Source: Obrimoposthia wandeli
Taxonomy: Eukaryota
Direction of reading: 5' to 3'
Assembly: GCA_977020255.1 (NCBI GenBank)
Contig: CDROCS010000506.1
Location: 2,976,001 to 3,040,000, forward strand
Length of the DNA: 64,000 nucleotides
Shown here: piece after piece, positions 21,359-63,941 of the stretch
Position numbering within the stretch: the stretch's first letter is position 1
Layout: each line of letters begins with the position of its first letter
Notes under the pieces: model-generated
The model's input: the letters and a program-made list of their open reading frames with translations, nothing else
Databases searched by the model: none
Told to the model about the DNA's origin: nothing
Translations under genes and position numbers: made by a program

Positions 21359-21394
21359 TTTTAATCCTAATAATATGTATGAATTTGTTTAAAA

Positions 21395-22330: not shown

Positions 22331-22344
22331 TTTTAACCTCTGTT

Positions 22345-22677: not shown

Positions 22678-22804
22678 TTTGTTTTCCTTTCAAATTATTA
22701 AATAAGGTAATCAGAGCTAATTACATGTTTGTCATGATTTTAAATTTTTGCATATCAGCCCTTTGAAGGGGGATTATAAAATCTATTTTAATCTGTATTT
22801 ATTG

Positions 22805-22848
22805 TTTATTTACACGATGAGCTATTAACCGCTCATCGTGTAAATAAA
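22805..22848. other. Intercistronic 18-bp stem-loop between toaA and kdgF
   Basis: TTTATTTACACGATGAGC-N8-GCTCATCGTGTAAATAAA; no U-tract follows it on the minus (sense) strand. Confidence 0.7.
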
Positions 22849-22851
22849 GTA

Positions 22852-24600: not shown

Positions 24601-24629
24601 ATGAGACCTATACAGGTTAAATAATTATG

Positions 24630-24675
24630 TTTTAATACAAAAATTGTATCTCAGTTTTCTGTATTTGTAATACAA
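24630..24675. promoter_or_regulatory. Tandem GntR/FadR-subfamily operators upstream of toaA
   Basis: TTGTAATACAA at 24665-24675 and TTTTAATACAA at 24630-24640. Confidence 0.65.
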
Positions 24676-24687
24676 AAAGACATGATG

Positions 24688-24703
24688 TGTGACTTGGATC
24701 GTA
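24688..24703. promoter_or_regulatory. Candidate CRP site in the toaA/oalB divergent region
   Basis: TGTGA-CTTGGA-TCGTA (8/10 match). Confidence 0.4.
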
Positions 24704-25030
24704 ACTTTATATTTAAATATAAAAAAACATTTTAATATTGATGGGGATGCAATCGTAATAATAAATTCATTCCCACATAAGTTGATGTGTTTTAATCGCT
24801 TTTAAATCAATGGTAAAAGCTGTTTTTACATGTGCTTTATCGAAGATGATCTTATGAAAAACCTGAAGTTAGGGTATGAATTACCAATGAAGGCGGCTGC
24901 TGGAACGAGTCGTGATTTTTCACTATTTAACAATCAGGTTAAAAATAATTAATGAGTGAATAGTAAAAAATAAAGTGATCTTACGGTCTATTTGTATTAT
25001 TTTATACTTACATTCAAAAAGGAGGTCATT

Positions 25031-27166: not shown

Positions 27167-27168
27167 TC

Positions 27169-29319: not shown

Positions 29320-29346
29320 GTTAAGATTATTCATGGTCTTTAAATC

Positions 29347-29379
29347 AAAGGGAAAGGTTTAATAACCTACCCTTTTTTT
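29347..29379 (+). terminator. Imperfect terminator after oalC
   Basis: AAAGGG-AAAGGTT-TAAT-AACCT-A-CCCTTT plus T7. Confidence 0.55.
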
Positions 29380-29418
29380 ATTCACATTATAGTATTTTTA
29401 ACCTCACCTAGGAATGTT

Positions 29419-31155: not shown

Positions 31156-31159
31156 ATAA

Positions 31160-31870
31160 CTAGTCAATCTTTAAGTGACGAAAAGTAGCTTCTGTGCCTG
31201 CAAAACGTTTTTTCAATAAAGCCAGATACAGTTCGCCAGTGGCTAAGGCGTCAATTAATGCACCATGGGCTGGGTATTCAGGTAGTCCATGGCGAATTCT
31301 TATAGAGGCCAAGCGAAAATCAGCCGTTTTTTGATTTCCCTGATGCATACTAAAGGATTTTTCAATACTTAAAGTATCAACCCATAATAATGGGAGCGGG
31401 GGAAGTTGGAAGTGCTCTGCAAGGTAATGGTCTAGAAAACGTTTTTCAATCATACTGCCGTGAGCAATGATGACTTTACCCACTAATGCAGCAAAAAGTT
31501 CATTCATGACATCATGTAACGGACTTCCATTTTCGAGCATTTTGGGCACAATGTGATTGATCACCGCCGTTTCAGCTTTAATTTCTTCTGAAGACTTAAT
31601 TAACGTTTCAACAGCTTGATCAAGTAGTAATAGTTGTTGAGTAATCGGTAGATAACCCACGCTTAATATGTAATCAATTTCAGGGTTAAACCCAGTAGTT
31701 TCAATATCTAACGACATATATTGAAGTTGGTATAAGTCATCATCAATATCTGGTAAAGGGGTTGTTAAGAGTGATCTTATGTTATCTGGAACTTGGTGCT
31801 TATTGAGATAACGCTCGCGCGATCGCTTTAATTTATTGAGCGGGTGGTAATAATTAAATAATTTAAGCAT
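31160..31870 (-). CDS. DEDDh 3-prime-5-prime exonuclease-family protein
   Basis: SLDIETTG, WVDTL, AHGALIDALATGELY. Confidence 0.85.
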   Translation of the reverse strand: MLKLFNYYHPLNKLKRSRERYLNKHQVPDNIRSLLTTPLPDIDDDLYQLQYMSLDIETTGFNPEIDYILSVGYLPITQQLLLLDQAVETLIKSSEEIKAETAVINHIVPKMLENGSPLHDVMNELFAALVGKVIIAHGSMIEKRFLDHYLAEHFQLPPLPLLWVDTLSIEKSFSMHQGNQKTADFRLASIRIRHGLPEYPAHGALIDALATGELYLALLKKRFAGTEATFRHLKID

Positions 31871-31897
31871 GAGTTTTATACCTAATAAGCAATTAAT

Positions 31898-33751
31898 TTA
31901 GTCCCGAGTAAAGCGCAATTTGGCAATGTCTTGTAATTTCGAAATGATTCTAAAAGCATCTTTTAAATGCTTTCTTTCAAAACTGCCAAACACGTTAGGA
32001 TCGATGTGATTATCAGCCTCACGTCCCTCTTTTAGCTCTAATAATTGATGTGAGAGTCGTACTTGGGTTATAAACCTGAATGCACCTAAGACATTTTTAA
32101 GCATCTCTTCACTTAATAGGTTTTGCTCATAAGCATGGGTAAAGCGAGCGGTTGTTTCAGTTTGTTCTGACCTTGATGATAGACCATAGATCCGAGCTAA
32201 ATCCACTAACAGGGTTAACGCGAATTTTTTAATGTTTAGCGTATTTGAGTGTTCACCTGATTTTTCTAAAACCAACGAATTAAAAATACCAAGTGGCGGA
32301 TTCACTGACACTGAATCGCGAACTAAAGCGGGTAAGAAACTGCTGGATTTTTTAATTACTGCAAATAGATGCGTTTGTAGTTCATTGTTAAATAATTCGT
32401 TACCGTATAACCAGCGGGTCTCTAAAAAGACACTGACATTTAGTAAATTATCATTCTGTATCCACTCGCCATAAGAATCCTTCCAAATTTGTAATGGTTG
32501 ACACCACTTAGGGTTTGCAGCCATAAATTTACCCGAGCAAAGCGGGTAGCCACAGGCATCTAATGCATTGCAAACCCACATCGCGAAATGCTGAAAATAG
32601 AGTTGATCACTTTTCGTCGCTTTATTCGATAAAATAATTGCGCTGTCTTGGTCCGATAACATATGTACTTCGTTACGCGCATGTGAGCCTGCAACAATCC
32701 ATGCATAATCACAAGGAATCTTACCAAAGAGACTTTCTGCCATCTGAATTAAACGGCGATTATAAGCATCCATAATCATGGTCATTACATGTCCAATGAC
32801 ATCACCATTCACTTGGCCTTCAACAAGCGCTTCAAAAATTGCTTGGCGTTCTGGCGTGAGTACGAATAGGTCTTGTGTCGTTTCAGCATATTTTATTTTT
32901 TCGATTAAAAATACAGCCTGCATCCTATTATTCCGTACTAAATGGGTTGTTGTTAGTACACCGAGTACCTTATTATTTTCTACGACAGGTAGGCTACGAA
33001 TATGATGTTGCATCATCAATGAAGATGCTTTTAAGACCAGATCATTAGGACTAATGGTCTGGGGGTGTTCAGTCATTACCGCAGATACAGGAGTCTTTAT
33101 ATCGACACCTGTCGCAATCACGCGTTTTGTCATATCGCGGTCGGTGATCACACCTACAATCATGTCATCTTTCATCACAACAGCAGTCGGAGAGCTTGCA
33201 GCCATAATTTCTTTTGCCACGTCTTGAATCGACATATCAGCTTGTACAACGGCTATTTTGTTACTTGCAACTTCAGATACTTTTTTGACAAATATACCCT
33301 TTTCACTGTCTGACCAAACAACATCTAAAGCTGAGTGTAAACGAGTCTGTGCATTGGTTGCAAAATGTTCTGCAAAGGAAGGGTATTTTTCAAGTAGTTT
33401 GAGTAAGTCGTTGTGGGGAATTAAATACAATAATGTACTTTCAAGCGCGGTTGCAGTGTAATCTTCTTCATCTTCTTTTTTGGTATCTAAAAAAGTAAAA
33501 CCAAAGAGATCTTCTTCGCTTAATTTCGCTCGCAGCATACCGTTATGCTTACGTTGTTCCATGGACCCCATGCGAATGGCATATAAATAACCTAACTCAT
33601 GCTCTCCACCAAAATGAACTTGTTCACCTTTAGCTAAATAGGTTATTTTTATCGAAGTAGCAATCTGACGTTGTAGCACCGTTGGTAGCTTATCAAAGGG
33701 GTCTATTTTAGAAATAAAATCGTGGATATTGGGAATAAGAGTCTGCGGCAT
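31898..33751 (-). CDS. cNMP-CBS-CBS-DUF294 nucleotidyltransferase (COG2905-like)
   Basis: N-terminal cNMP-like domain, CBS pair (VGVITDRDM, HIRSLPVV), NTase motif AGSHARNEVHMLSDQDS, DUF294_C (LNIKK..ARIYGL); alternative start 33766. Confidence 0.85.
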   Translation of the reverse strand: MPQTLIPNIHDFISKIDPFDKLPTVLQRQIATSIKITYLAKGEQVHFGGEHELGYLYAIRMGSMEQRKHNGMLRAKLSEEDLFGFTFLDTKKEDEEDYTATALESTLLYLIPHNDLLKLLEKYPSFAEHFATNAQTRLHSALDVVWSDSEKGIFVKKVSEVASNKIAVVQADMSIQDVAKEIMAASSPTAVVMKDDMIVGVITDRDMTKRVIATGVDIKTPVSAVMTEHPQTISPNDLVLKASSLMMQHHIRSLPVVENNKVLGVLTTTHLVRNNRMQAVFLIEKIKYAETTQDLFVLTPERQAIFEALVEGQVNGDVIGHVMTMIMDAYNRRLIQMAESLFGKIPCDYAWIVAGSHARNEVHMLSDQDSAIILSNKATKSDQLYFQHFAMWVCNALDACGYPLCSGKFMAANPKWCQPLQIWKDSYGEWIQNDNLLNVSVFLETRWLYGNELFNNELQTHLFAVIKKSSSFLPALVRDSVSVNPPLGIFNSLVLEKSGEHSNTLNIKKFALTLLVDLARIYGLSSRSEQTETTARFTHAYEQNLLSEEMLKNVLGAFRFITQVRLSHQLLELKEGREADNHIDPNVFGSFERKHLKDAFRIISKLQDIAKLRFTRD

Positions 33752-33787
33752 AAATGATCCATTCAATAGTTTTAATGGTGATAATGC

Positions 33788-33820
33788 AAAAAAGCCATTC
33801 TTGAATTAAGAATGGCTTTT
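33788..33820 (-). terminator. Terminator downstream of dehR
   Basis: AAAAGCCATTCTT-N5-AAGAATGGCTTTT with a T6 tail on the minus strand. Confidence 0.75.
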
Positions 33821-33947
33821 AAATAGCATTATGTCGAGGCTAGATTAAAGAGCAAGTTTGAATACATCAAATTGAGAATGTCGTTATGATATTTGAAGGC
33901 GAAATACATCCTAAGCTGCTCTCTTATCTAGCTATTATAATATGAAA

Positions 33948-34829
33948 CTATTTCTCTAATTTAGTAAAGTAATCGAAAATAACGGGTACGTCGTGACGAC
34001 CAAGACCAGCATCAACACCAGCTTGTAGTGCTTTAGAAGTACCTTCAGCGATTGGAGATTCAGTACCTAAATCAGAAACCATTTGTAAGAAGTAACCAAG
34101 ATCTTTGTTTGCATTAGCAACAGAGAAACCTAATTTTTCTTCATTATCTACAGCATAGAACTTAGTGAACTGCATGAATGGTGAGTTAGATGGACCAGCA
34201 GACATGATGTCGAATAATTGTTGACCGTCAACACCTGCAGCTTTTGCAACAGCAAACGCTTGTGACATAGCTGTCACTGTCGTCATACCAATGAAGTTAT
34301 TGATTAACTTCGTTGTGTGGCCAGCGCCTAATTTACCTAGGTGGAATACGTTTTCGCCTTGCTCTTCTAGAACAGGTTTAACTTTGTTGAAAGTCTCCAT
34401 GTCGCCAGCAGCCATGATGTTTAATAAACCATCTTTAGCGTGTGCAGGAGTACGACCTAAAGGAGCATCGATCATGCCACAGCCTTTCTCAGCTAGTGCA
34501 GCACCGATTTTAATCGTAGAAGCAGGAATAGAAGTACCGAAATCTACTAATGTAGAACCTTCTTTAATACCAGCTAAAATGCCGTCTTCACCGTAAACGA
34601 TCATTTCAACAACGTTAGAAGTTGTTAGACAGAATTCAACGATATCAGAAGCAGCTGCTAATTCTTTCGCTGAGGTGAATTGAGTCGCATTTCCACGAGC
34701 AAGAACAGCGTCAACTGCATCTTGGCTTAGATCCATTACATTTACTTGAAAACCACGTTTTTGTAGGTTTTCAACCATGTTGCCGCCCATAAGGCCAAGG
34801 CCGATGAAACCGATGACTGGTTTTGTCAT
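33948..34829 (-). CDS. dehR: DEH reductase (beta-hydroxyacid dehydrogenase fold)
   Basis: GFIGLGLMG, DAPLGRTP, TKLINN; resembles V. splendidus DehR as recalled; alginate context. Confidence 0.8.
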   Translation of the reverse strand: MTKPVIGFIGLGLMGGNMVENLQKRGFQVNVMDLSQDAVDAVLARGNATQFTSAKELAAASDIVEFCLTTSNVVEMIVYGEDGILAGIKEGSTLVDFGTSIPASTIKIGAALAEKGCGMIDAPLGRTPAHAKDGLLNIMAAGDMETFNKVKPVLEEQGENVFHLGKLGAGHTTKLINNFIGMTTVTAMSQAFAVAKAAGVDGQQLFDIMSAGPSNSPFMQFTKFYAVDNEEKLGFSVANANKDLGYFLQMVSDLGTESPIAEGTSKALQAGVDAGLGRHDVPVIFDYFTKLEK

Positions 34830-34926
34830 GTCTAACTCCTGAATATATTAATGTATGTTTATCAGAGTGCGAATAATATACGCAAGTCTCTTGATTAAGT
34901 ATGGGATTATAATAGATCTGTTTTAT

Positions 34927-34937
34927 TTGTATTACAA
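34927..34937. promoter_or_regulatory. GntR/FadR-subfamily operator overlapping the predicted -35 of dehR
   Basis: Minus strand reads TTGTAA(-35)-17 nt-TATTAT(-10); the operator TTGTAATACAA starts at the -35. Confidence 0.65.
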
Positions 34938-35060
34938 TAGTAATAATGAATTAAGATCAAATAAATTGAAGTTAAAAGTAAAAGTTTATTTCGATAATAT
35001 GATGGATAAATAAATTGTTTATTTGGCGGGAGAGTAAAAGGTATATAAGCAGGTATTGTT

Positions 35061-35088
35061 AATTGCAGGCCCTAGCAGGTCTGCAATT
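35061..35088. terminator. Hairpin downstream of the GntR regulator
   Basis: AATTGCAGGCC..GGTCTGCAATT. Confidence 0.5.
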
Positions 35089-35097
35089 GAGCATCAA

Positions 35098-35808
35098 TTA
35101 ACGCGTTGGTAGGCGATGGTTACTGTTATTTAATAAATCGCTATTGGCTTTTCTTGCTTTATCAGCATCACCAGCCATGATAGCCGAATAAATAGCACGA
35201 TGTTCATTGATACAAGTACCACCCTCTTCAGATGAATGGCCGATAAAGCTTTTAAACATTGTCTCGAGTACATTAGCAAACGGCAGATAAAATGAATTAC
35301 CTGTCGATAGAAATACCAAGCGGTGAAACTCCATGTCAGCATCTTTCCACTGTTCTAGGTCAAAATTAGCTGATATCTCATCCATTCGTTGAAAAGTTGC
35401 AGATAATAAGATGCGTTGTTCAGCTGTTGCATTTTTTGCCGCTAAAGCGGCCGCTTCTGGTTCAATTGCTTTACGTAATTCTAGAAATTCTTGATAAATA
35501 CTTTCGTTATCAAAGAGATCTGCTCCCCAATCTAATAGTTGAGAATCTAAAAAATTCCAATTTTCACGAGATTTAACACGCGTCCCAACTTTAGGTCGTG
35601 ACTCTAATAAACCTTTTGATGTTAATAGTTTGATCGCTTCACGTAAGGCTGTTCTGCTGATGTTAAACTGTTCACATAGCATCATTTCACTTGGAATTAT
35701 TTCATTCTGTTCCAATTTACCTGACAATATTTTTCTTGCTATTTCACGTGCTACTTGCACATGTAAACTGCGCTTTGAGCCTGGTATCTTTAAAAAAGAA
35801 TGATTCAT
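35098..35808 (-). CDS. GntR/FadR-subfamily (FCD) transcriptional regulator of the alginate locus
   Basis: wHTH SRTALREAIKLLTSKGLLESRPKVGT; FCD domain DMEFHRLV..INEHRAI. Confidence 0.88.
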   Translation of the reverse strand: MNHSFLKIPGSKRSLHVQVAREIARKILSGKLEQNEIIPSEMMLCEQFNISRTALREAIKLLTSKGLLESRPKVGTRVKSRENWNFLDSQLLDWGADLFDNESIYQEFLELRKAIEPEAAALAAKNATAEQRILLSATFQRMDEISANFDLEQWKDADMEFHRLVFLSTGNSFYLPFANVLETMFKSFIGHSSEEGGTCINEHRAIYSAIMAGDADKARKANSDLLNNSNHRLPTR

Positions 35809-35986
35809 AAATATCTTATGTTTAAATTTAACGTTAAAGGTAATTGTATGATGAATGCTAAGAAATAGATATAGGGTGTCACACAGAAAAAGGGTTCTAA
35901 GCGTAAATAGATGCTGTAATGGTCAAAGGTGTAATTGGCTATAAATAGATTAAACTACTTATAGCCAATATCTCGCTAATAATAAA

Positions 35987-36676
35987 TTAGAAGGAGTAGC
36001 GAAGGCCTACGCGACTTCTCAATTCACGTTTATCGGAAGTACTGCTAACATTGACATCACCAAACTCCAGCCAAGGCGTCCAATCACCCATCTTATAACT
36101 TGCTGTTAGGTTATTTTCATAGTTAGTGCTTTTATTATCATACAATATGTAGGTGCTAGAGTGCGCATCATAATAGTTCATTTCTAATCCTAGGCTCAAA
36201 TTATCAATGCTGTAGCCTAAGTTAAGTGTGTAACGATTTCGGTATTTTTTATCTTGTCCTTCTTCATCTCTTTGGTCTGGCTTAACATCTAAACGATAGC
36301 GACCACTAACTGAAAAGTTTTCAATAGATTCTGGTTTGTACGTTAAACGTAATTGTGGCTTGTAAGTAACGCTTGATGCGCCGAATTCAATTGGCATACC
36401 TGGCTGTAAAGCCCATTGATTGTTAATATCCCATTTGTAATTCAGACCAATTTCAGAACCATTATTCTGTAATTCCTCCATGAACTTACCTTCAGCTCCT
36501 TTAAATTTAACTTCTAAATCAACCATAAAGTTATTTTCAAAAGTCGTTGCCATCTTAACGCGACTAGCATGCTGTTTCGAATCACTTTTATACTCATGGC
36601 GAAAGTCGATAGAACTTGCGTGAACAGTTAGAACGCTACTAGAGATAACTAAAACAGCTAGTTTGGTTAGTTTCAT
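35987..36676 (-). CDS. kdgM: KdgM-family oligosaccharide porin
   Basis: Signal peptide MKLTKLAVL..VHA, SIDFRHEY, PGMPIEF, C-terminal RVGLRYSF. Confidence 0.85.
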   Translation of the reverse strand: MKLTKLAVLVISSSVLTVHASSIDFRHEYKSDSKQHASRVKMATTFENNFMVDLEVKFKGAEGKFMEELQNNGSEIGLNYKWDINNQWALQPGMPIEFGASSVTYKPQLRLTYKPESIENFSVSGRYRLDVKPDQRDEEGQDKKYRNRYTLNLGYSIDNLSLGLEMNYYDAHSSTYILYDNKSTNYENNLTASYKMGDWTPWLEFGDVNVSSTSDKRELRSRVGLRYSF

Positions 36677-36698
36677 AATGCACCCTTTAAATGTAATT

Positions 36699-36709
36699 TT
36701 GTAATACAA
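36699..36709. promoter_or_regulatory. GntR/FadR-subfamily operator upstream of kdgM
   Basis: Exact TTGTAATACAA, 22 nt from the kdgM start codon. Confidence 0.65.
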
Positions 36710-49880: not shown

Positions 49881-50099
49881 TTGGTTTTATCTGTTTTTAT
49901 TACTAACCTAAGAATGTTGCTGTTTTTTTTAATAATTTGTGATGAAGACCTGTCCAAAATTGAATTCCCGACTAACCTTATCTCTACTGAATTATATTTT
50001 GATAAAAATTTGTTTCTAGTTAGTTTTATAGTTGTTGCTAGGTATGTTTAATTTGTAAGCGTGGTTTCGAATGGAGAGACTCGCTTAGGAGATAGAAAA

Positions 50100-50954
50100 A
50101 TGGAATTATCTAACGAGTCGAATGCACTAGACGTATACATGTATCAAGTAAACCGAAGCAGTAAATTATTAACTAAGGAAGAAGAATACGAAACTGCAAT
50201 GGCGTCCAATGAAGGCGATGAAAAAGCCAGAAAACGTATGATCCAATCTAACTTGCGTTTAGTGATTAATATCGCCAAGCGCTATCAGCATACCTCTTTG
50301 CCACTCGTAGATATCATCCAAGAAGGAAATACCGGATTAATTCATGCTGTTGAAAAATTTGATGCGACCAAAGGTTTTCGTTTTTCAACCTATGCAGTGT
50401 GGTGGATAAAAAATAATATCGAACGCTTTATTATGAATCAGTCTCGTACTATTCGTGTGCCGATTCATATTGGTAAAGTATATAAACGCATTTTAAAAAC
50501 AGCACGTGAACAAGAATTAGACTTACAATGTACTCATGATGTGATGGCATTGGCAGAATTTTTGGAAATGCAGTACGAACAAGTTACTGAAGTGTTATCC
50601 TATTATTTCAATGAAGCGAGTTTAGATAAAACCATTGTTACTGATCGAGACTCGAGTACTGCGTTAGTTGACATGCTAGAAGATTATTCTATCTGTAAAC
50701 CTAACGATGAGCTCGAAGATGCCGATACTTTATGTTATTTAAGTGAAGTATTAGGGCACTTATCAGAACGTGATAGAAAAATCATTGAATTGAGGTTCGG
50801 ACTCGGTGAAGAAGACCCACTGACACTGCATGTGATTGGTGAACGTTTATCTATGTCGAGAGAACGGATCCGCCAAATTATTAATTTAAGTTTACAGAAA
50901 ATTCAGCCTGAGTTATTGCAAAATACAGTACAAAAACAAGATTACCTGAATTAA
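50100..50954 (+). CDS. RpoS-like (group 2) sigma-70 factor, not in nlpD-rpoS context
   Basis: MIQSNLRLVINIAKRY, QEGNTGLIHAVEKFD..GFRFSTYAVWWI, RTIRVPIH, region-4 HTH SRERIRQI; AGGAGA RBS at 50087-50092. Confidence 0.9.
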   Translation: MELSNESNALDVYMYQVNRSSKLLTKEEEYETAMASNEGDEKARKRMIQSNLRLVINIAKRYQHTSLPLVDIIQEGNTGLIHAVEKFDATKGFRFSTYAVWWIKNNIERFIMNQSRTIRVPIHIGKVYKRILKTAREQELDLQCTHDVMALAEFLEMQYEQVTEVLSYYFNEASLDKTIVTDRDSSTALVDMLEDYSICKPNDELEDADTLCYLSEVLGHLSERDRKIIELRFGLGEEDPLTLHVIGERLSMSRERIRQIINLSLQKIQPELLQNTVQKQDYLN

Positions 50955-53071: not shown

Positions 53072-54262
53072 ATGACCACATCATTTTATTCGCAAATTCA
53101 ATCTCAGCTAGTACAAACTAAAGCTGATGGCCTTTACAAAAACGAGCGAGTAATCACTTCTGCCCAAAATGCCAACATTCAAGTGGCTGGCAATGAAGTT
53201 GTTAACTTCTGTGCGAATAACTACTTAGGTTTAGCTAACCACGCTGATCTTATTGCAGCGGCACAGTCTGGTTTAGATAGCCACGGTTTTGGTATGGCGT
53301 CAGTACGCTTTATCTGTGGTACTCAAGACAAACATAAAGAATTAGAAAGCAAGATCAGTACTTTCCTAGGTATGGAAGATACTATTTTGTATACATCATG
53401 TTTTGATGCAAACACAGGTTTGTTCGAAACAATACTTGGCGCTGAAGATGCAATCATCTCAGACGAACTTAACCATGCATCTATTATTGATGGTGTACGT
53501 TTATGTAAAGCCAAACGTTTTCGTTATAAAAATAACGACATGGCTTCATTAGAAGAACAACTGATTGCTGCAGACGCTGCTGGCGTGCGCCACAAGTTAA
53601 TTGCAACTGACGGTGTATTCTCAATGGATGGCGTAATCGCTAACCTTGAAGGTGTTTGTGATCTTGCAGACAAGTACAACGCATTAGTGATGGTTGATGA
53701 TTCTCACGCTGTGGGTTTTGTTGGTGAAGGCGGTCGTGGTACCCCTGAACATTGTGGCGTTATGGACCGTGTTGACATCATCACAGGTACATTAGGTAAA
53801 GCACTTGGTGGCGCATCAGGCGGTTACACATCGGCTAAAAAAGAAGTTGTTGATTGGTTACGTCAGCGTTCACGCCCGTACTTATTCTCTAATTCTGTTG
53901 CACCTGCAATCGTTGCAGCATCTATTCGTGTAATCGACATGATGGAAGAAGGTCATGAACTACGTATTAAAGTAAAAGCAAACGCAGAACATTTCCGTAA
54001 AGAAATGAGCGCAGCTGGTTTTACACTTGCTGGTGCAGACCACGCAATCGTACCTGTTATGATTGGCGATGCAGCACTTGCAGCTGAAATGTCTGAGCGT
54101 TTACTTGCTGAAGGCATCTACGTAATTGGTTTCTCTTTCCCTGTGGTACCACATGGTAAAGCCCGTATTCGTACGCAAATGTCAGCAGCGCACAGCGTAG
54201 AACAAATTGATATTGCGATTGCCGCATTTACCCGTATCGGTAAAGACTTAGGCATTATCTAA
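53072..54262 (+). CDS. kbl: 2-amino-3-ketobutyrate CoA ligase
   Basis: [38 protein letters not shown]. Confidence 0.96.
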
Positions 54263-54333
54263 AGAAACAATTAATTAAGCGTCAAGAGTGTGACTCTGAC
54301 GCTTAATATTATCGATAAAAGTGGATTAAAAAA

Positions 54334-55359
54334 ATGAAAGCATTAGCAAAGTTAAAGCCGGAACCAGGTATTTGGATGACAGATGTTGAAGAGCCAACGC
54401 TTGGACACAATGACCTGTTAATCAAAATTCGTAAAACTGCAATTTGCGGTACAGACATCCATATCTACAACTGGGATGAATGGTCACAAAAAACGATTCC
54501 AGTACCTATGGTTGTTGGTCATGAATATGTGGGCGAAGTTGTTGGTATTGGCCAAGAAGTACGTGGTTTCAGCATCGGCGACCGTGTTTCTGGTGAAGGT
54601 CACATCACATGTGGTCACTGTCGTAACTGTCGTGCAGGCCGCACACACTTATGCCGTAACACCACTGGTGTTGGTGTTAACCGTGAAGGTGCATTTGCTG
54701 AGTTATTAGTGATCCCTGCATTTAACGCATTCAAACTACCAGATGATGTTTCTGATGACATGGCTGCTATCTTTGACCCGTTTGGTAACGCTGTACACAC
54801 AGCATTATCATTTGACGTTGTTGGTGAAGATGTACTAATCACTGGCGCTGGTCCAATTGGCATCATGGCTGCTGCAGTATGTAAGCACGTTGGCGCACGT
54901 AATGTTGTGATCACAGACGTAAACGAATACCGCTTAGACCTAGCACGCCAAATGGGTGTTACTCGCGCTGTAAACGTTATGACTGAATCACTTCAAGATG
55001 TAATGGACGATCTTAAAATGACTGAAGGCTTCGATGTTGGTCTTGAAATGTCAGGCGTACCATCTGCATTTAGCGATATGCTAGACAAGATGAACCATGG
55101 CGGTAAAGTTGCTATGCTAGGTATTCCACCAAGCACAATGAACATCGATTGGGGCAATGTTATCTTTAAAGGTCTAGTAATTAAAGGTATCTACGGTCGT
55201 GAAATGTTTGAAACTTGGTATAAAATGGCTGCATTAATCCAGTCAGGTTTAGACCTAACACCAATCATTACGCATCACTACCCAATTGATCAATTCCAAG
55301 AAGGTTTTGATATTATGCGTTCAGGTATGTCAGGTAAAGTTATCCTCGACTGGGCATAA
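54334..55359 (+). CDS. tdh: L-threonine 3-dehydrogenase
   Basis: ICGTDIH, GHEYVG, CGHCRNC, GAGPIG. Confidence 0.97.
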
Positions 55360-55389
55360 TATAACGCTAATCACCTAGATTAACGCTGG

Positions 55390-55426
55390 AAGGGTAAGTC
55401 TGAGATAATCAGGCTTACCCTTTTTT
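55390..55426 (+). terminator. kbl-tdh terminator
   Basis: AAGGGTAAGTCTGA..TCAGGCTTACCCTT plus T tract. Confidence 0.8.
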
Positions 55427-55539
55427 ATTGTCTTTAATATGCTTATCTTTATAAAACAGGATTATATTTTGGGTAAATACCCTGATGACGATGTTATAAT
55501 ATAACACTGTGCTTTATTTAGAGTGAATAGTAATTACCA

Positions 55540-56217
55540 ATGATGATCATTAATGAAAATTACGTCGTCGATTTCGATGATGCAATAATCTTGAGTTTAA
55601 ATACTGGATTACGCACAAGTTTAGGCAGTAATGAAGTGTCATTATTACGCTATATGATCCAACATCAAGGTCAATTGCTACTGCGTCAAGATTTGATGGA
55701 AGAAGTGTGGTTAAGCAAAGGCATTATTGTTGAAGACAGTAGCTTGTTACATGCGATCTCTAACTGCCGAAAAGCACTCGAAGACAAAGACACGAAAATT
55801 ATTCAAACCCAACGTGGTAAAGGCTATATTTTTCTAGGTAAGGTTAGTCCTTATTCTCTGCAGCAGGCCGAAGAAATCGATAGCAGCGAAAAGGTTAAGG
55901 CGGAAGATAAACCGTCACATGAAAACCCTTCGACTAAGAGTGATTTTTTTAATGTATTCGGACGTTATATCGTAGTGTACCTGATGATATCAGGGGCGTC
56001 TTTTATGTTGTGGCACACCTTCTCATCACCTTGGACATCTGCAGAGCATTATTATATTGAGCAGTTCGCCAAGTGCGCCTTTATTGATCCTGAGACCGAA
56101 ACGGAAATGATATTTCAGGATGTTACTATTTATCATGCCAATGGATTATCGTTATTAATTGATACTGCTGATGCGTCGATCAGTTATCAGGATGAATTAG
56201 AGGTGGACTGTGAATAA
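55540..56217 (+). CDS. ToxR/CadC-type membrane-anchored winged-helix regulator
   Basis: OmpR-type DNA-binding domain (EVWLSKG..SSLLHAISNCRKAL..IQTQRGKGY), one TM (about aa 143-161), short periplasmic tail with C179 and C224. Confidence 0.8.
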   Translation: MMIINENYVVDFDDAIILSLNTGLRTSLGSNEVSLLRYMIQHQGQLLLRQDLMEEVWLSKGIIVEDSSLLHAISNCRKALEDKDTKIIQTQRGKGYIFLGKVSPYSLQQAEEIDSSEKVKAEDKPSHENPSTKSDFFNVFGRYIVVYLMISGASFMLWHTFSSPWTSAEHYYIEQFAKCAFIDPETETEMIFQDVTIYHANGLSLLIDTADASISYQDELEVDCE

Positions 56218-56674
56218 AATCGCATTGTTAACCGTGGTATTAAGCGGTTTAGTAACGGGTTATATTGCTAATCAGTGGTCAACCCCCGAGATGAATGAAC
56301 GGTTTAATTCAAATACCCGTATGTACATTAATACGAGCTTTGATAAATCCCATACCATTGATATCAATGCGGGCTTAGAGCTAAAAGAAAATGGTCTGTT
56401 TGAATATTATCTTGTCATACCAAAGAATATTGGCTTTTCATCAGTAGGTAATTACACGCTGGAGAAGGGTTTATTATCATTAAATATTACTCAAAGCGAA
56501 CCGTTACTCGATGAGCAAGAGAGTAAAAATCCATTAGAACTATATGAAAAACTAGTCAGTCGTGCAGAAATGCACACAACCGAGAATATGTTAGCGTTTA
56601 GGCCCTTACATAATGACCGAGCATTGGTGGTATTTGCAGAACGTGGCGCATTTTATTTTAAACCGCGGGACTAG
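56210..56674 (+). CDS. ToxS-like membrane-anchored periplasmic partner
   Basis: N-terminal TM anchor and beta-rich body; GTG start overlaps the upstream stop by 8 nt. Confidence 0.55.
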   Translation: MNKIALLTVVLSGLVTGYIANQWSTPEMNERFNSNTRMYINTSFDKSHTIDINAGLELKENGLFEYYLVIPKNIGFSSVGNYTLEKGLLSLNITQSEPLLDEQESKNPLELYEKLVSRAEMHTTENMLAFRPLHNDRALVVFAERGAFYFKPRD

Positions 56675-56687
56675 GCGTCAATGAATA

Positions 56688-56727
56688 CATACTAACTAGC
56701 TTATTGAATATCAAACTAGTTAGTATG
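56688..56727. terminator. Inverted repeat between the convergent ToxS-like gene and fadL
   Basis: CATACTAACTAG-N16-CTAGTTAGTATG. Confidence 0.5.
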
Positions 56728-56765
56728 CTCTTAAGGCAGGGGGGAATAGCTAAATAGCTGAACCG

Positions 56766-57968
56766 TTAGAACGAGTGGTTATACTGTAAACCAAATAACC
56801 AAGCGCTGGATTCAACAACGCCATTAATACTCGATTCTGTTCCCGGTATTGTCGTGAGACTTTCTTCTACAGCTGTATCTTCACCAAGAATATAACTAAC
56901 GCCTAAATCAATGCTTTGTGATTGCGATAGTTTGTATGTAGTACCGACAGATAACCAGTGACGATTTGAATCAGGAATCGATACTGATTCCAAGGTGTCA
57001 GTTGGCGCATGGTCATACATATAACCCGCGCGTAATTCCCAACTTTCTGATGGGTAATAGGTAGTACCAACAGAAATATGTCCCGCGTCAGCCCATTCAT
57101 AATCTTTAATGTTACTGTCGAAATCACTTGATGTTAACGAATCAAATTCAGACCATTGCACGTATTGGACACTGTAGTGAAACGCTAATTTAGGTATAAC
57201 TCTGTGATAACCAGATAATTCAATCATATCGGGTAAGGGAATATTGATACTATTAGCGCTGCCTTCACCTGTCATATCGACATCGCCACTTGCCTCTAAA
57301 TCAGGACTGTAGCGATAACTTAAACCAATACGGTTATTATCGTTAAACTCATAAGCCAAACCAAGATTAAACCCATAAGCGACGCCGTCGGCTTCGACTT
57401 CAAGCAGATTATCACGAGAAATTTGTCCTTCACCGTAAATAACGTCTAGCCCGGCACCCAAACTTAATTTTTCGGTGAGTTGATAAGCCGCTGAAAGGCC
57501 AATGTTGATACTGGTAAGCGATGTTTCGCCACCAAATTCACTGGCTATGTAATCATCCGGAAATTCAACGCTGGTGCCAAAATTAGAATATATAGCCATA
57601 CCCAGTGTTAAATCGGAATCAGCGATAGGGTGTACATAGTAGAAATTGGGGATGAATGCTGCATTAGCAATATCGTCAACATTAGCATCAACTGTATCAC
57701 CGGACATAGGTGTATAAGATGCATCAGTGAGACTTACATCGGTGACGACACCAATGGCACCGACAGATAGTGAGGGTTGATCAAACAATGCCATAGCGGC
57801 GCTGTTTTTAGCCATGACAGAAGCATTGTCAGCAATAATACCGTCACCTGCGTATGCACGGCCTAGGCCTGTTGCAGATTGTGCGTTAAGTTGGAAACCT
57901 GCAGCATGGACTTGGCTACCTACGCAGGCAAGCATGATTATTGGGTAAGCTCGGCGTAAGTGTCTCAT
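56766..57968 (-). CDS. fadL: Long-chain fatty acid outer-membrane transporter, FadL family
   Basis: Signal peptide then AGFQLNAQSATGLGRAYAG, SNFG, SIPDSNRHW, terminal F; ATGA overlap with the lipase stop. Confidence 0.9.
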   Translation of the reverse strand: MRHLRRAYPIIMLACVGSQVHAAGFQLNAQSATGLGRAYAGDGIIADNASVMAKNSAAMALFDQPSLSVGAIGVVTDVSLTDASYTPMSGDTVDANVDDIANAAFIPNFYYVHPIADSDLTLGMAIYSNFGTSVEFPDDYIASEFGGETSLTSINIGLSAAYQLTEKLSLGAGLDVIYGEGQISRDNLLEVEADGVAYGFNLGLAYEFNDNNRIGLSYRYSPDLEASGDVDMTGEGSANSINIPLPDMIELSGYHRVIPKLAFHYSVQYVQWSEFDSLTSSDFDSNIKDYEWADAGHISVGTTYYPSESWELRAGYMYDHAPTDTLESVSIPDSNRHWLSVGTTYKLSQSQSIDLGVSYILGEDTAVEESLTTIPGTESSINGVVESSAWLFGLQYNHSF

Positions 57969-60140
57969 TGGACTTCCTCGATTTCAATATTGGTATTATC
58001 ATCAATTATTACTGCGCGACCATCACTAAAAATCATGCTGCGAACGGCTATTTGCTGTGTTTCTGTTGCCGTACGTACTTTTGCGAGTTCGGATGTACCG
58101 GGAGCGCCGCTTTCATCCATTGGACCTTCATAGGCGAAAAGGTAAGTACCATGGCCACCTGTTGTCGCGCGGATCACACCTCTAATCGTGCCGTTCGCGC
58201 CATTACCACCGATGGTATCATCTCTGATGTCGTCTAATGCGAGTGCGGTAATTAATGGGTCGGTACCGGTTAATACATTGATAGGGCTATTATTTGGCAC
58301 GACAAAATCAGGCATGTATTCACCAACTTCACAGGTATCACCACAAGTACCGACCGCTTCAATTAGCAGGGTTGGTTGTAGATTGGCAACTTGACGACGG
58401 GTAAACGCCGCAGGATCTGCACTGTCAACGCTGGTTTGAACACCTTGTTTGAAGCTTGGCATAATCAGTGTGTAGATATCATCTTCAAGCTGGGATACAA
58501 CGCCGGCGTTGTGGGTAGACTCTGCGCTAAACGTACGTAATGCTACAATGCACTCTTCGTTTGTGCTGTTGCTATGGCACAGATCGGGGATCACGGTTTC
58601 AGCGATTCCACGTTGAATATCCGGTGATTTCTTCACTGATTCTTCCGTTTCAGGTCCAAGTAAATCAGAGGTCAATACTAAGTTAACCAGGCCTTGGCCT
58701 GGTACGGCGAAGTTAACGGTTTTGTATGATAAATTATTAGTTCTTAGGGCCGCTGAAGGCTGTGACATTTCACTGACCATCACTGACACAATACCGCCCA
58801 GTGAGTGGCCAATAAGGTGAATGTCGTCTTCATTTGCCCAAGGTGCGGCAATTAAAGCGTTACGCAAGCTCAGGTTGTCAGATACAGCTTGATTTAAGTT
58901 ACCTCGGAGTGTTAATGGCGAGCTGATATTAATGAAATCGCCTTTATTAATTTCTGCGCCGATCTCATTACCTTCATCATCGAGTAAAATACGCTCTCCG
59001 TGGTAAGGCATATCGATTGCAACAACAAGGTAATCTTGATCTGTATAATCTTTTGCCATTAATGATGCAGTGCCTCTATTGGCTGTTACACCGTGAATAA
59101 ATTGCACCACAGGTAATTGAAGTCTACCTTCATCTGCCCATTTTTTTGGTGTATAAACATCGACAGTAATCGCTAATGGTGTTGATGCTGGCAGGGGGTT
59201 GCCACGGGTTAAATGACCGTCTGGATCATTATCTGGTTTCATCCAATCGTAAAGTGCAGGGCATGAATCAATAGGATCAAACTCATCGACTAGGCAGTCC
59301 TTTTCATCCTCTTCGGTGAAAGGTAAATAGAAGGGTAAGGTTAATTGAGCTGTATAAGTATCATATTTTGCTCGATCCGATCCAACCTTTTCAGGTATTA
59401 ACAGCCCAAGAGATGCTGATTGATTATTTTCAATGATTGCATCTGAAATTGCATAACTGCTTTGCGTGGTAAATTGCGCCGCATAGGCAATGTTCTCAGC
59501 TTGTATTCCTGTCACGGCCATTTTGCTGCCAGTATTTGTGCTTTTAACGTCAACTTGTTCTTGATCTGTTAATGTCATCTGGGCCACTATATCTGGTTCT
59601 GTAATGCGCGGGATCGGCTTGTAGCTGTGTCCCATCTGATGTTTCAACTTGGTCACTGACAAGTAAGAAATAAGTACTATCTTCAGTTAAGGTCGCGGTA
59701 CATTCGATCTGAATATTTTCACTGGTTGAAGATATATTGGTTTCAACAGGTGTTCCATCCGCTTTAATCAACACCACATTGTTAGCTAATGTATTTGGAT
59801 CAAGCGGGTATCTTTCATTGCTATTGAGACTAGCAATTGGAATTTGCATTGGCTCAGTACATAAACCCCAACCATCTAAAGCGGCGTAAACTGTATCAGA
59901 GCTACGATAGAAGTTTTCTCTGTCTACACCAGCTACATCATCTTCACCGGGTAATGAGATAGTGAGGTCATCATCATAGCCATAACCGTCGTTAGGCATA
60001 GGCAGGGCACTAACTGAAAATGGCACATAGGTATTAATGGGGTCTTGGCTAGTTTCATCATCTGATTGGCAGGCACTTATTGCCATGCAACCGATAATAA
60101 TACCGGTGTAACGCCTTAAACTTATTAACTTCATTGTCAT
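57965..60140 (-). pseudogene. VolA/Pla-1/Cef-type lipoprotein lipase split by one frameshift (ORFs 60140-59550 and 59662-57965)
   Basis: Lipobox ISAC at C24, ALPMPND..ALDGWG in the 5-prime part; FIHGVT, IDMPYHGER, GHSLG nucleophile and GGHGTY in the 3-prime part; the frames overlap by 113 nt. Confidence 0.75.
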
Positions 60141-60402
60141 GATTCCATTTTGTGTTTAGTGGTGTTTCGTGTCAGGTCGTCACTTTTGCCTAAAACGGAC
60201 AAAGACGCTAATAATTAAGTATTATTATGTATAATTAAGGTTATTAATGTTGCGTGCTGGTATGGTGTTTGTTTTCTAAGTGTTTGTTATTGGTTGTTTA
60301 TTTATCTTCATATAACGTGTACATCTGTTATTGTTATTGCATATGGAAAATATGCGCAGGGTCAGGCATAGCGCTTTTATAATGGACTGGAAGGGATTCA
60401 GA

Positions 60403-63255
60403 TTGAATTATACAAATATAATATTGGGACTTAGTCTAGCGCTAGTGGTGGGTTGTAACTCTGAATCATCTGCGACGGATGAACCAATCCGAGAAGCTAT
60501 ACCTGTGGCACCAGAACCTGTGGTACCAGAACCTGTGACACCAATACCTGTAATACCTACCGTGATTGCCCAAGCACTTGCGACTGGAGATGTCAGTTAT
60601 GTTGATGATGCATCACTGTTGGTTGCAGAGCTTAAGCACACCGTCACGGCGAATCAAATAACGGCAAAAGCTATCAAGCAAAGCTTGTTTAATATCGGTG
60701 CTAAAGATGCACCAGCATTAATGGATTTAACTTGGTGGCCGACTCATGATGCTGCTGCATTTAAAAATACTTATGGTATAAATTATTCAGTTATTGAATC
60801 AAATGCGATTATTCCTGAATATGATGATGGCAAGAAAAAGCCAGAAGCATTACCTGTTGCAATTGCTGGTCAATATAAAGCACAAGGTCGTTATTTAGCA
60901 TTAAACTCAAATCCTTTTCGTAATAAAGGTAAAGCGGAAAATGCATTAAATGCAGACATGGAATTATGGCTCGAAAATACAGTAAGCTGGCTATCTCAGC
61001 GTCATGATTTCTCGGCAGATAAACCGTTAAATATTGTGATGTCGCAATTAGATGATTCATATTATTTTAAAGACAGAACACTAACGCGCACATGGTTTGA
61101 TGAACATTACACCGGTAACGTTAGCTATAATTTACCACAGGCATGCGATGGCTCTGCATTAGTAAGCTGTGTTAGCGAAGATACTGATTTAGTTATTTTA
61201 TCGCAGTATACAGATGGACTTACCGACGATGAGGTGGGGGATTATGTAGCGAGCGTGGAAGCATTATTAACACAAGGTACATCGATATTATATGTGCATC
61301 ATGACGGTAATCTTAAACCATTAGGTAAAGCGTTATTTGAATTGCTACATATTACCTATATCGGTGATAACTACTGGCGTAAATTTGGCACCAGCGCTTT
61401 TAATGTGATGGATAATTATGATGTGCGACCTGCTGATATTGAGCTGCAGCTGGCGTTGTTAAATCGTCTAGATACCAATAGCTTTACTGTTGACCTGTCA
61501 CAATGTAACGATAAAACCTGCGAACCAGCATCTTTAATGGATGAACAGTTTTATCAAGCAGCAAGCATGATAAAAGCGCAGATAGATAGCGTTGATAAAA
61601 ATAAGCTAGCCTTATTCGAAGACGATGTCTTTAACTATCAAAAACTATTGATCTTACTTGGTGACAAATATCGTCAAGACGTATTATTTCCCATGAATAA
61701 GGTCGATACCAATGCCAACGTATTTTTACGTTCCTTATATGCAGATCATGTATTATTCAACAATCGACCGATTAATGCAGCGCAAGCGAGTTTAGGTGAT
61801 TTTAGTCGCAGTGACTTTTCGCATATAACACCCGTTACTCAACAAGTGAGTCTTAGCACACGCGGCGCGTTCCAAGCCGCTGGTGTATATGTGCTGCCGG
61901 GGAAAACCGTGACGATCACGCGTAATGATAACGAAGATGTGAATACCAGTGTATTTATGAATACGTTACGCAGTGGATCCACGCACGAATACTTAGCAAA
62001 AGATGGCTACAGTCGACCAAAATTTGTCAAATCGCAAAGCTATAATATCAAGCCTGGAGAAACTATCTCGTTAACATCAGCTTATGGTGGCTTGCTGCAA
62101 GTCGGTTTTGATACCAAAACAAATGTTGTTGCTGCAGACCCATTAGCACAAGTTGATTTTACTTTTGTAAATGTGGGCTTGCATCCTGTGTGGCGAAGTA
62201 ATGGCGATAGCGCCGCATTTACCGCACAAGTGAACGCGAACCAATATGATTGGGCTGAGTTTATTACTGATAATTTTCAAGTACATTCAACCACAGATAA
62301 AATGTTGAAAACGATATCGGATCCAACATGGTCAGATCTTTCGTTACTGGCGAGCACAACACAGAAGTATACCCATGGTTATGAGAAAGCCCTTGGTGGT
62401 TTTGAAGGACCAAATATTGAAGTGTTGGCTGAAGTCGTTAGCTTTGCCAATACCAGAGGGTTAGCGTTAGCCTATAAAGATCAGATCCATCATTTCAATG
62501 CTGACCGCGCGAGTTGTGGGGCAGGCTGCTCGGGTAATCCATATGATGCTAATTGGAATTTCAATCCTCTGGGTCACGGTGACTTACATGAAATCGGCCA
62601 TACTCAAGAAAGTGGTCGTTTCCGATTTAGTGGTTGGGATTCACATTCAAGTACGAACTATTATTCCTATTTTACCAAACACATGAATTACCAAAAAACT
62701 GGCAATGCGCCAGTGTGCCAAAAGTTGAATTTTGAAAGCATGTTTACGCATTTGAAAGCCAGTCGTCAGCAGGGCGTTGATTCGTATCAATACATGCAAG
62801 GCCTTGGGTTAAACAGCTGGTCAAATGGTGCCATGATTATGATTCAAGCTATGATGGCTGCACAAAATGCAGGTACGCTCGATGTTGGTTGGCATTTGAT
62901 TGCCAGATTACATGTCTTAGACCGTCATTTCAGCACTGCAGTGAAACAAGAATCTACGTGGCTCACGACGCGAGATGCCCTGGGGTTTAGCCAATATTCA
63001 CAAGCTGAAGCGAAATCTATCGGTAAAAATGAGTGGTTAGCCATTGCGATGTCAACGGCAATAGAACGTGACGTTACCGACTTTACCACTATGTGGGGAC
63101 TCGCTGTGGATGATAAAGCCAAGGCGCAAATTGGAGCAACGCAAAGTACCGTGTTACCGATGAACTTTTATGCCTCCAATAATTTGGGTGCTTATTGTGA
63201 AAGCTTGGTGCAGCCCAAAATAACCGTGAATGCAACTATGGCTTGGCCGCATTAG
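60403..63255 (+). CDS. ImpA/M60-like zinc metalloprotease lipoprotein
   Basis: TTG start with GGAAGGGA RBS gives the lipobox VVGC; Pro-rich linker; NADRASCGAGCSGNP..GHGDLHEIGH (HExxH). Confidence 0.8.
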   Translation: MNYTNIILGLSLALVVGCNSESSATDEPIREAIPVAPEPVVPEPVTPIPVIPTVIAQALATGDVSYVDDASLLVAELKHTVTANQITAKAIKQSLFNIGAKDAPALMDLTWWPTHDAAAFKNTYGINYSVIESNAIIPEYDDGKKKPEALPVAIAGQYKAQGRYLALNSNPFRNKGKAENALNADMELWLENTVSWLSQRHDFSADKPLNIVMSQLDDSYYFKDRTLTRTWFDEHYTGNVSYNLPQACDGSALVSCVSEDTDLVILSQYTDGLTDDEVGDYVASVEALLTQGTSILYVHHDGNLKPLGKALFELLHITYIGDNYWRKFGTSAFNVMDNYDVRPADIELQLALLNRLDTNSFTVDLSQCNDKTCEPASLMDEQFYQAASMIKAQIDSVDKNKLALFEDDVFNYQKLLILLGDKYRQDVLFPMNKVDTNANVFLRSLYADHVLFNNRPINAAQASLGDFSRSDFSHITPVTQQVSLSTRGAFQAAGVYVLPGKTVTITRNDNEDVNTSVFMNTLRSGSTHEYLAKDGYSRPKFVKSQSYNIKPGETISLTSAYGGLLQVGFDTKTNVVAADPLAQVDFTFVNVGLHPVWRSNGDSAAFTAQVNANQYDWAEFITDNFQVHSTTDKMLKTISDPTWSDLSLLASTTQKYTHGYEKALGGFEGPNIEVLAEVVSFANTRGLALAYKDQIHHFNADRASCGAGCSGNPYDANWNFNPLGHGDLHEIGHTQESGRFRFSGWDSHSSTNYYSYFTKHMNYQKTGNAPVCQKLNFESMFTHLKASRQQGVDSYQYMQGLGLNSWSNGAMIMIQAMMAAQNAGTLDVGWHLIARLHVLDRHFSTAVKQESTWLTTRDALGFSQYSQAEAKSIGKNEWLAIAMSTAIERDVTDFTTMWGLAVDDKAKAQIGATQSTVLPMNFYASNNLGAYCESLVQPKITVNATMAWPH
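60502..60558 (+). repeat. 15-bp tandem repeat encoding a Pro-rich linker
   Basis: CCTGTGGCACCAGAA CCTGTGGTACCAGAA CCTGTGACACCAATA CCTGTAATACCT = PVAPE PVVPE PVTPI PVIP. Confidence 0.75.
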
Positions 63256-63323
63256 CTGTGCGCCTTTGATGTCGGGTGATTTATGTTATTATCTACTTAA
63301 ATCACCCAGTAACAAAGACCATC

Positions 63324-63941
63324 ATGACTGAACGTACAACCCAAATCACTGCCGAAGAGCATACTTTAAGTAATAGTATTACCGATAACGATAACGATAC
63401 CGCTAATGATAATGCTACCGATAATGATAGCAACTTAGCACTTACGCCGGAGCAACAACAAGCTGACGAACGCTGGATGCAACATGCGATCATGCTCGCG
63501 GGCAAAGCTGAAGCTATTGATGAGGTGCCAGTTGGTGCGGTTGTCGTACTGGATGGTGAAATTATTGGTGAAGGTTGGAATCAAGCGATTAACTTACACG
63601 ATGCGACAGCACACGCTGAAATTATCGCATTGCGTGCTGCGGGTAAAACGGTTTCGAACTATCGACTTATTGATGCGACACTGTATGTGACGTTAGAACC
63701 ATGCTCTATGTGTGCAGGTGCGATGGTGCATAGCAGAGTGAAGCGTTTAGTTTATGGCGCGGTAGATTTAAAAACGGGGGCGGCAGGCTCGGTATTTAAC
63801 TTGGTAGAGCATGCACAGTTGAATCATCAAATTGAAGTACGTTCAGGGGTTTTTGCTAGTGAGACTGGCGCATTATTAAGTAATTTCTTTAAACGTCGCC
63901 GTAAAGAGAAAAAAGCCCTGAAGCGCTTGCAGAAAGGTTAG
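63324..63941 (+). CDS. tadA: tRNA adenosine(34) deaminase with an N-terminal extension
   Basis: EVPVGAV, HAEIIALR, TLEPCSMC, FFKRRRKEKK. Confidence 0.93.
   Translation: MTERTTQITAEEHTLSNSITDNDNDTANDNATDNDSNLALTPEQQQADERWMQHAIMLAGKAEAIDEVPVGAVVVLDGEIIGEGWNQAINLHDATAHAEIIALRAAGKTVSNYRLIDATLYVTLEPCSMCAGAMVHSRVKRLVYGAVDLKTGAAGSVFNLVEHAQLNHQIEVRSGVFASETGALLSNFFKRRRKEKKALKRLQKG

Follow-up and report, generated by a model that had tools for sequence, protein, structure and literature searches.

What might a membrane-tethered regulator and the small protein encoded over its last codons sense, and which genes might they control? The question is raised by a cassette between tdh and tadA in a stretch of 64,000 nucleotides (the window; positions 2,976,001 to 3,040,000 of contig CDROCS010000506.1, here C506) from the Obrimoposthia wandeli assembly GCA_977020255.1 (G000). 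This assembly measures 1.35 Gb and holds several organisms, and the closest relatives bearing names, for regulator and partner alike, are Moritella without exception. Read from tdh to tadA, the cassette consists of the regulator and its partner on the forward strand, fadL and a lipase in two pieces on the reverse strand, and impA again on the forward strand (Table 1). On balance, we regard it as probable that the pair is a lipid-sensing co-component regulator of the lipase-fadL operon.

The regulator comprises a winged helix-turn-helix (wHTH) domain (Trans_reg_C, PF00486, E=4e-15), a linker, a single transmembrane helix and a periplasmic tail, some 60 residues long, that carries two cysteines, C179 and C224. 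The hydrophobic stretch covers approximately residues 139-162, with a hydropathy peak of 1.63 at residue 139 (1.17 in the G003 orthologue). Searched with a profile of 52 sequences, the best solved relative of the wHTH is the DNA-binding domain of ToxR (E=5e-20), ahead of PhoB (2e-13) and CadC (7e-9), while a quick tree places the 52 regulators and six ToxR proteins in separate groups with a support of 100; the Atlas model of the homologue P0021 matched one unnamed Trans_reg_C cluster, with a TM score of 0.61 over 59 residues that lies under the naming bar. Both cysteines are unchanged in all 52 aligned regulators, mostly at 30-37% identity outside Moritella, and presumably form a disulfide. 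Codon changes relative to G008 are mostly synonymous (synonymous:nonsynonymous, 13:2 in the tail and 25:9 in the partner). The first-pass annotation of this DNA was thus right about a single membrane helix and a short two-cysteine tail ending in VDCE. Its likening of this end to that of Vibrio cholerae ToxR, which presumably reads VCE, proved superficial: none of six ToxR proteins ends in VCE, and the tail does not align with the ToxR periplasmic domain (hhalign probability 0.1%). The conserved end, CE in 84 of 89 pairs, coincides instead with the overlap of the partner gene onto the last cysteine codon.

This overlap, of 8 nucleotides between the two open reading frames (ORFs), had been noticed before and is a nearly constant feature of the family: of 89 pairs, 86 have the GTG with which the partner starts placed over the final cysteine codon of the regulator, one base 3' of that codon's first base. 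The partner has an N-terminal anchor. Neither Pfam nor NCBIfam matched the window's protein, Pfam scans of family members gave scattered weak hits only, a partner profile found no PDB sequence at E<=10, VtrC included, and hhalign against ToxS gave at most 3.5% (0.9% in another run). An AlphaFold model built on 52 sequences (pLDDT 85; the 16 close sequences gave an unusable pLDDT of 48, and the larger alignment was used instead) shows an anchor helix and eight strands, the fifth and sixth being separated by a short helix. All three Foldseek matches of this model at E<=0.001 were ToxS chains, and VIA-align against 48,161 chains ranked ToxS first (Z 11.9, root-mean-square deviation 3.1, 122 residues aligned) and VtrC second (Z 11.1, 2.5, 111 residues), the next chain reaching 9.4. 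Since the model best matches ToxS and VtrC, the partner is predicted to be a lipocalin-like eight-stranded barrel of the ToxS/VtrC type, which bears out, on a predicted model, the ToxS-like fold that had been proposed from its strand and helix pattern. A complex prediction for the two periplasmic domains, run without alignments and with the partner fold uncertain, scored 0.00 in both runs and speaks neither for nor against their pairing. One hit in the collection of family members, P0031 (E=8e-18), was dropped as unrelated, being a repetitive protein of 1,880 residues.

Is the company of the pair conserved? Searches found the partner in 5 of the 13 Moritella genomes and, within the family of G360 (Vibrionaceae, to judge from its proteins' names), in 62 of 401; an order-wide sample gave strong matches in 14 of 401 genomes and marginal ones in three. 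In each of the five Moritella carriers, the pair adjoins tdh and faces fadL and the lipase in convergent order, and a close lipase occurs in exactly these five; in six other Moritella genomes tdh directly abuts tadA, the site being empty, and in G007 and G012 the junction was not seen. Among the Vibrionaceae carriers, 34 of 62 have a lipase divergent from the regulator, with fadL in 33 and an RND efflux pump after it in 29, so that the linkage proposed in the first-pass annotation is kept in both groups. Conversely, 46 of the 47 Vibrionaceae genomes with a close lipase hold the partner (the search scored two candidates per genome), and the partner was found in none of the 13 whose lipase hits are more distant or partial. 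In three loci (L073, L094 and L110), which are among the 13 carriers with neither lipase nor pump, deletion remnants reveal that regulator function, lipase and fadL were lost together. Lipase and pair stay adjacent whether their order is convergent or divergent, in three clades that branch deeply in a quick regulator tree, and between regulators sharing no more than about 30-35% identity, although many of the Vibrionaceae carriers form one Vibrio clade and the counts therefore overstate independence. The other recurrent neighbour is the RND pump, found beside the pair in 44 of the 62 carriers; neither it nor the split of the lipase had been noticed in the first-pass annotation.

Some arrangements in the family are worth recording in their own right. 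In one Vibrio clade (L050, L051, L058, L074, L082, L084, L090, L100), two paralogous pairs flank the RND pump, and in L095-L099, L106, L107 and L109 the pump is absent and two pairs lie side by side. Distant members in L148 and L149 sit between pnp and truB, adjoining a TPM-PDZ protein, with no lipase. In L102 (10035-11307), another wHTH regulator with a downstream ORF of 161 residues and a second FadL-like gene lies about 3 kb from the main pair.

The gap 60141-60402, where a binding site had been suspected, contains a triple direct repeat with a period of 10. It was first seen on aligning lipase upstream regions, and none of 100 shuffles of the window region reaches its score, six periods having been tried without correction. 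At p<=0.02 (100 shuffles), the repeat is found in all three Moritella loci, in all five loci of one Vibrio clade and in L086, while it is found upstream of none of seven lipases from genomes without the pair. With matrices that leave out one lineage at a time, the window site ranks first in 64 kb (12.8, the runner-up scoring 12.6), as do the sites in L023, L026, three of four Vibrio loci, L086, L111 and L112; the site is second in L091 and outside the top four in L102. A matrix without Moritella places the gap first of 243 tiles, with period 10 only. One upstream region, that of L131, was mis-anchored in both the shuffle and the leave-one-out analyses. The full matrix scores at least 12 in 34 of 37 lipase-upstream gaps, a partly circular count, in 11 of 15 gaps between partner and pump and 2 of 8 between partner and a second regulator, and in 0 of 29 fadL-pump gaps, 1 of 31 regulator-only gaps and 11 of 345 others. 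The repeat unit resembles the ToxR box, given as TNAAA-N5-TNAAA in the available part of PMC8517210, and no ToxR or ToxS was found in the Moritella genomes tested; in Moritella, the pair's own regulator is the obvious candidate binder. We thus propose, with moderate confidence and from sequence patterns, that the repeat is an operator for the regulator. A FadR-like palindrome fits none of these regions, with at least four mismatches upstream of all 22 linked lipases and at least three for 20 unlinked or distant ones. In L084 (5481-5631), L085, L087 and L092, the repeat matrix also reaches scores of 17.7-20.5 at sites 5' of a small gene that lies past the second pair, a possible further target.

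What do the presumed targets encode? The channel belongs to the FadL family, although its score against NF007988 (307 bits) does not reach the cut-off of 585. The intact relatives of the lipase are lipoproteins with a GxSxG motif that score 204-222 bits against TIGR03502, under the cut-off of 383.9; with lipobox and GxSxG present, the lipase is a divergent relative of VolA/Pla-1 despite this score. In the window it is made up of two overlapping ORFs in different frames, where all four Moritella relatives with a contiguous locus have one gene of 725-728 residues, so that the neighbours named in the first-pass annotation hold for fadL and for the linkage, the lipase itself being broken. The bin 59500-59699 shows 5-9 gap openings against each of the four relatives, the highest of all bins, and among the contigs listed in six sequencing runs no near-identical one spans about 59485-59700. 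Two contigs of run X1, possibly the source data, diverge at this patch with depths of 19.6 and 12.6, while its upstream flank has a depth of 31.3. From 12 to 28% of the sequence words are present in four RNA runs, which we do not read as evidence of expression or habitat. The window allele resembles G008 and G003 upstream of the break and G001 downstream, and the nearest relative shifts along fadL and lipase (56766-60140) as a whole; this mosaicism suggests allele exchange or a mixed-strain consensus. The htpG gene of C506 likewise shows in-frame stops. The split is therefore quite likely a consensus error between two alleles, a real inactivation of the window lipase being the less likely alternative.

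Together, these features suggest a mechanism that follows, by analogy, the known co-component systems. Regulator and partner would likely pair in the periplasm, the short β-rich tail of the regulator completing the barrel and forming a pocket, as in ToxRS and VtrAC (available parts of PMC10624426 and PMC9214523). The likely ligand of this pocket would be a lipid, or a detergent-like molecule, from the host, upon binding of which the regulator would likely activate the lipase-fadL operon from the triple repeat upstream. As judged from VolA (available part of PMC3656444), the surface lipase would then free fatty acids from substrates of the lysophospholipid type, for import by FadL, and the same transcript probably extends, in many vibrios, to the RND pump, which would remove toxic amphiphiles.

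A number of observations weigh against this explanation. The lipase of the window is itself split; 28 of the 62 Vibrionaceae carriers have no lipase beside the pair (15 with the pump only, 13 with neither), other members lie beside a pilus cluster, a large Ig-repeat protein or a TPM-PDZ protein, and the closest Vibrionaceae lipase, in G411, comes from a genome without the pair, the sole exception among the 47. As to the operator, period 10 was picked after the sequences had been seen, the signal is weak or marginal in 5 of the 13 linked loci tested (L080, p=0.02; L102, 0.04; L111, 0.07; L091, 0.08; L112, 0.50), the lead of the window site is small, and column-shuffled matrices put the gap 60141-60402 first in 15 of 200 trials. 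Moreover, only 1 of 11 upstream regions of unlinked lipase-fadL operons scores at least 12, the repeat faces the lipase in Moritella and the opposite way in the main Vibrio clade, and in vibrios canonical ToxR could be the protein that binds it.

Alternatively, the pair might chiefly be a sensor for envelope stress or detoxification that detects bile-like or membrane-damaging amphiphiles and drives the RND pump, lipase-fadL being transcribed along with it as cargo. The frequency of the pump beside the pair fits such a role, as does the enrichment of the repeat in partner-pump gaps, which have no intervening lipase and lie outside the training set; yet these 15 gaps all belong to a single clade and may have a common origin with the lipase promoter, and Moritella as well as four Vibrionaceae loci hold lipase-fadL without a nearby pump, so that we consider this role unlikely. 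The repeat could also serve the impA promoter, the pair sensing mucus or host-surface signals and chiefly controlling ImpA, or colonisation genes in trans. It lies between lipase and impA, in the orientation to impA that it has to the targets in the Vibrio loci; of the 13 Moritella genomes, three yielded ImpA, each time inside this cassette; and co-component pairs control adhesins and secretion systems (available part of PMC9214523), single members of the present family lying beside pilus or adhesin-like genes. The protein is an ImpA-family member by its HExGH zinc motif and its score against NF038322 (880 bits, cut-off 250; E=2e-47 against PDB 5kdw), its protease activity being putative, and its longest ORF starts at 60331, 60403 being the likelier start. 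The ImpA-like neighbour of the first-pass annotation is thereby verified, though not as a core part: it is missing from the cassettes of G001 and G002, both of which retain the repeat, and from every fetched Vibrionaceae locus. ImpA is an optional passenger of the cassette, and its being the principal target seems improbable. Finally, pair and operon might be linked merely as fellow passengers of an island that is mobile or often lost, with the pair regulating something else or sensing physical cues such as temperature or pressure. Patchy presence at one Moritella junction and the exchange visible in the mosaic lipase and fadL alleles are in keeping with this, and ToxR is listed with the pressure response in Photobacterium (Table 1 in the available part of PMC10269533). 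However, the adjacency survives changes of gene order and the divergence of the regulators, and for the pressure sensing that had been suggested we found no evidence, the pair not being found in 8 of 13 Moritella genomes; this last scenario is very improbable.

The cassette is set apart from kbl-tdh by a terminator-like hairpin 3' of tdh. An extended -10-like element upstream of the regulator, with a similar element at the same place in the Vibrionaceae loci, is its presumed promoter, read from the sequence; the promoter scan list of the window does not include it, and the sigma-70 scan, with 25 sites against 24.9 expected, was uninformative.

Table 1. Features of the cassette and its flanks (window positions)
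Feature	Position	Strand	Evidence
tdh, flank of cassette	54334-55359		Verified by ORF list and family scans
Terminator-like hairpin (intrinsic type) 3' of tdh	55388..55424	+	16-pair stem, T tail
Extended -10-like element 5' of regulator	55492..55500	+	Sequence reading; similar element in Vibrionaceae loci
Membrane-tethered winged-helix regulator, 225 residues	55540..56217	+	PF00486, hydropathy, alignment
Membrane-anchored partner, 154 residues, predicted eight-stranded lipocalin-like barrel	56210..56674	+	AlphaFold, Foldseek, VIA-align
FadL-family outer-membrane fatty-acid channel, 400 residues	56766..57968	-	PF03349, E=3e-111
Lipase C-terminal piece, VolA/Pla-1-like, GHSLG serine motif	57965..59662	-	TIGR03502, E=6e-49
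Low-confidence patch with lipase frame break	59485..59700	.	No crossing contig; gap openings
Lipase N-terminal piece, lipoprotein signal peptide	59550..60140	-	TIGR03502, E=2e-5; lipobox cysteine
Triple direct repeat, period 10, 5' of lipase; candidate operator	60212..60239	-	Shuffles; matrix ranks
ImpA-family (M60-like) lipoprotein, putative metalloprotease, HEIGH motif	60403..63255	+	NF038322
tadA, flank of cassette	63276-63941		Verified by ORF list and family scans

Elsewhere in the window, an alginate-use cluster (18488-36709) holds oligo-alginate-lyase-like genes (PF05426, PF07940), a sodium:solute symporter and a KdgM porin, together with putative aldolase-, kinase- and GntR-like ORFs. 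A GTP cyclohydrolase II fused to a NADAR domain is encoded at 7722-8783, and an RpoS-like sigma factor, scoring under the RpoS cut-offs, at 50061-50954; the latter is 95-99% identical among five Moritella carriers. Seven of the 13 Moritella genomes have two tdh matches, the second kbl-tdh copy lying behind a LysR-like gene; the duplication loci are window 53072-55359, L027, L031, L035, L037, L038 and L040.

Why would such a pair matter? As of 2023, the solved co-component structures were those of ToxRS and VtrAC, both bile sensors of gut pathogens (available part of PMC10624426). Co-component sensors have been proposed as lipid receptors, and the family described here offers a compact test of that idea outside virulence. 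A single cassette unites candidates for the ligand class, the target promoter and the operator, and both Moritella and Vibrionaceae provide natural presence/absence and co-loss variants. How marine bacteria adjust their scavenging of lipids on fish and invertebrates may also find an explanation here. A bolder extension, which we hold to be conceivable and rather doubtful, is that these are feeding-dedicated lipid receptors of the ToxS type, widespread in the sea, in which the barrel is completed by a minimal disulfide-closed tail of about 60 residues and the detection of animal-tissue lysophospholipids or fatty acids would switch on lipase, channel and efflux pump through the family's own ToxR-like box, a metabolic setting of the kind from which the bile-sensing virulence switches might descend.

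How does the pair relate to the systems already known? With ToxR/ToxS (PDB 8alo and 8u2f; PMC10624426) it shares the order of wHTH, membrane helix and periplasmic domain, a C-terminal cysteine and a ToxR-box-like repeat near the presumed target, and ToxR and ToxS are the nearest relatives of its wHTH and of its partner model. It differs in its tail of about 60 residues, not alignable to that of ToxR, and it does not belong to ToxRS proper, its partner lying outside PF17323 and the pair not lying beside htpG. As had been suggested for checking, canonical toxRS was sought separately: it is present elsewhere in all five Vibrionaceae carriers tested, while a search for ToxS in the five Moritella carriers found none, and none of the 25 wHTH matches of G003 is ToxR-like by length and context. 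A toxRS locus on contig C122 of the same assembly (L002, beside htpG) was rejected as that of the window organism; it belongs to another one, since its HtpG is 83% identical to that of G551 and 67-68% to those of Moritella, and C506 has its own htpG. VtrA/VtrC (PDB 5kev; PMC4933562) has the same overlapping two-gene cassette and the same barrel fold, and its Moritella homologues beside a sphingomyelinase, lacking vtrB and described by Li et al. (available part of PMC4933562), are a precedent for a pair next to a lipid-degrading enzyme. A second wHTH-membrane pair of G003 (L168, G003:C1:1203541-1206013) fits that arrangement, lying about 1.9 Mb from the main pair and directly upstream of a TIGR03395 sphingomyelinase; its partner of 164 residues matched nothing in PDB, Pfam or G000, and a VtrA-like ORF in G001 had no periplasmic PDB match. 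The present pair is distinct from VtrAC proper, as its partner has no sequence match to VtrC and its neighbours are neither vtrB/T3SS2 nor a sphingomyelinase; VtrA, moreover, is without the cysteines (available part of PMC10624426).

A partner start over the last cysteine codon is shared with TcpP/TcpH and PsaE/PsaF and is a tendency of the co-component superfamily (Kinch et al., available part of PMC9214523). In the comparison with YqeI/YqeJ, GrvA/FidL and MarT/FidL, the language-model neighbours of the partner include the YqeJ_C and FidL_like clusters (0.89-0.91); the partner has no cysteine and thus lacks the barrel disulfide of FidL and YqeJ, and these families are absent among the 25 listed of 29 Pfam families hit by 52 members. 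The presumed targets are metabolic, which sets the pair apart from the YqeI/YqeJ, FidL, PsaEF and TcpPH group. In V. cholerae, fadL-volA (VCA0862-VCA0863; available part of PMC3656444) likewise joins a GxSxG lipoprotein lipase to a FadL channel, with the order reversed (here the lipase comes first) and with the lipase relatives here under the TIGR03502 cut-off; the same part of that source mentions no dedicated membrane regulator for it. The terms Moritella, Photobacterium, splendidus, efflux and lipase do not occur in the available part of the main text of PMC9214523, and a literature search by title or abstract start, with most subscription journals outside its reach, did not find the family, which is apparently undescribed. 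Like the VtrA/VtrC-like superfamily (Kinch 2022), the pair has a wHTH, one membrane helix and a periplasmic domain, an adjacent overlapping partner gene, a cysteine pair and a barrel, the last as a prediction. It is a separate family within this known co-component class, alongside ToxRS and VtrAC and identical with neither.

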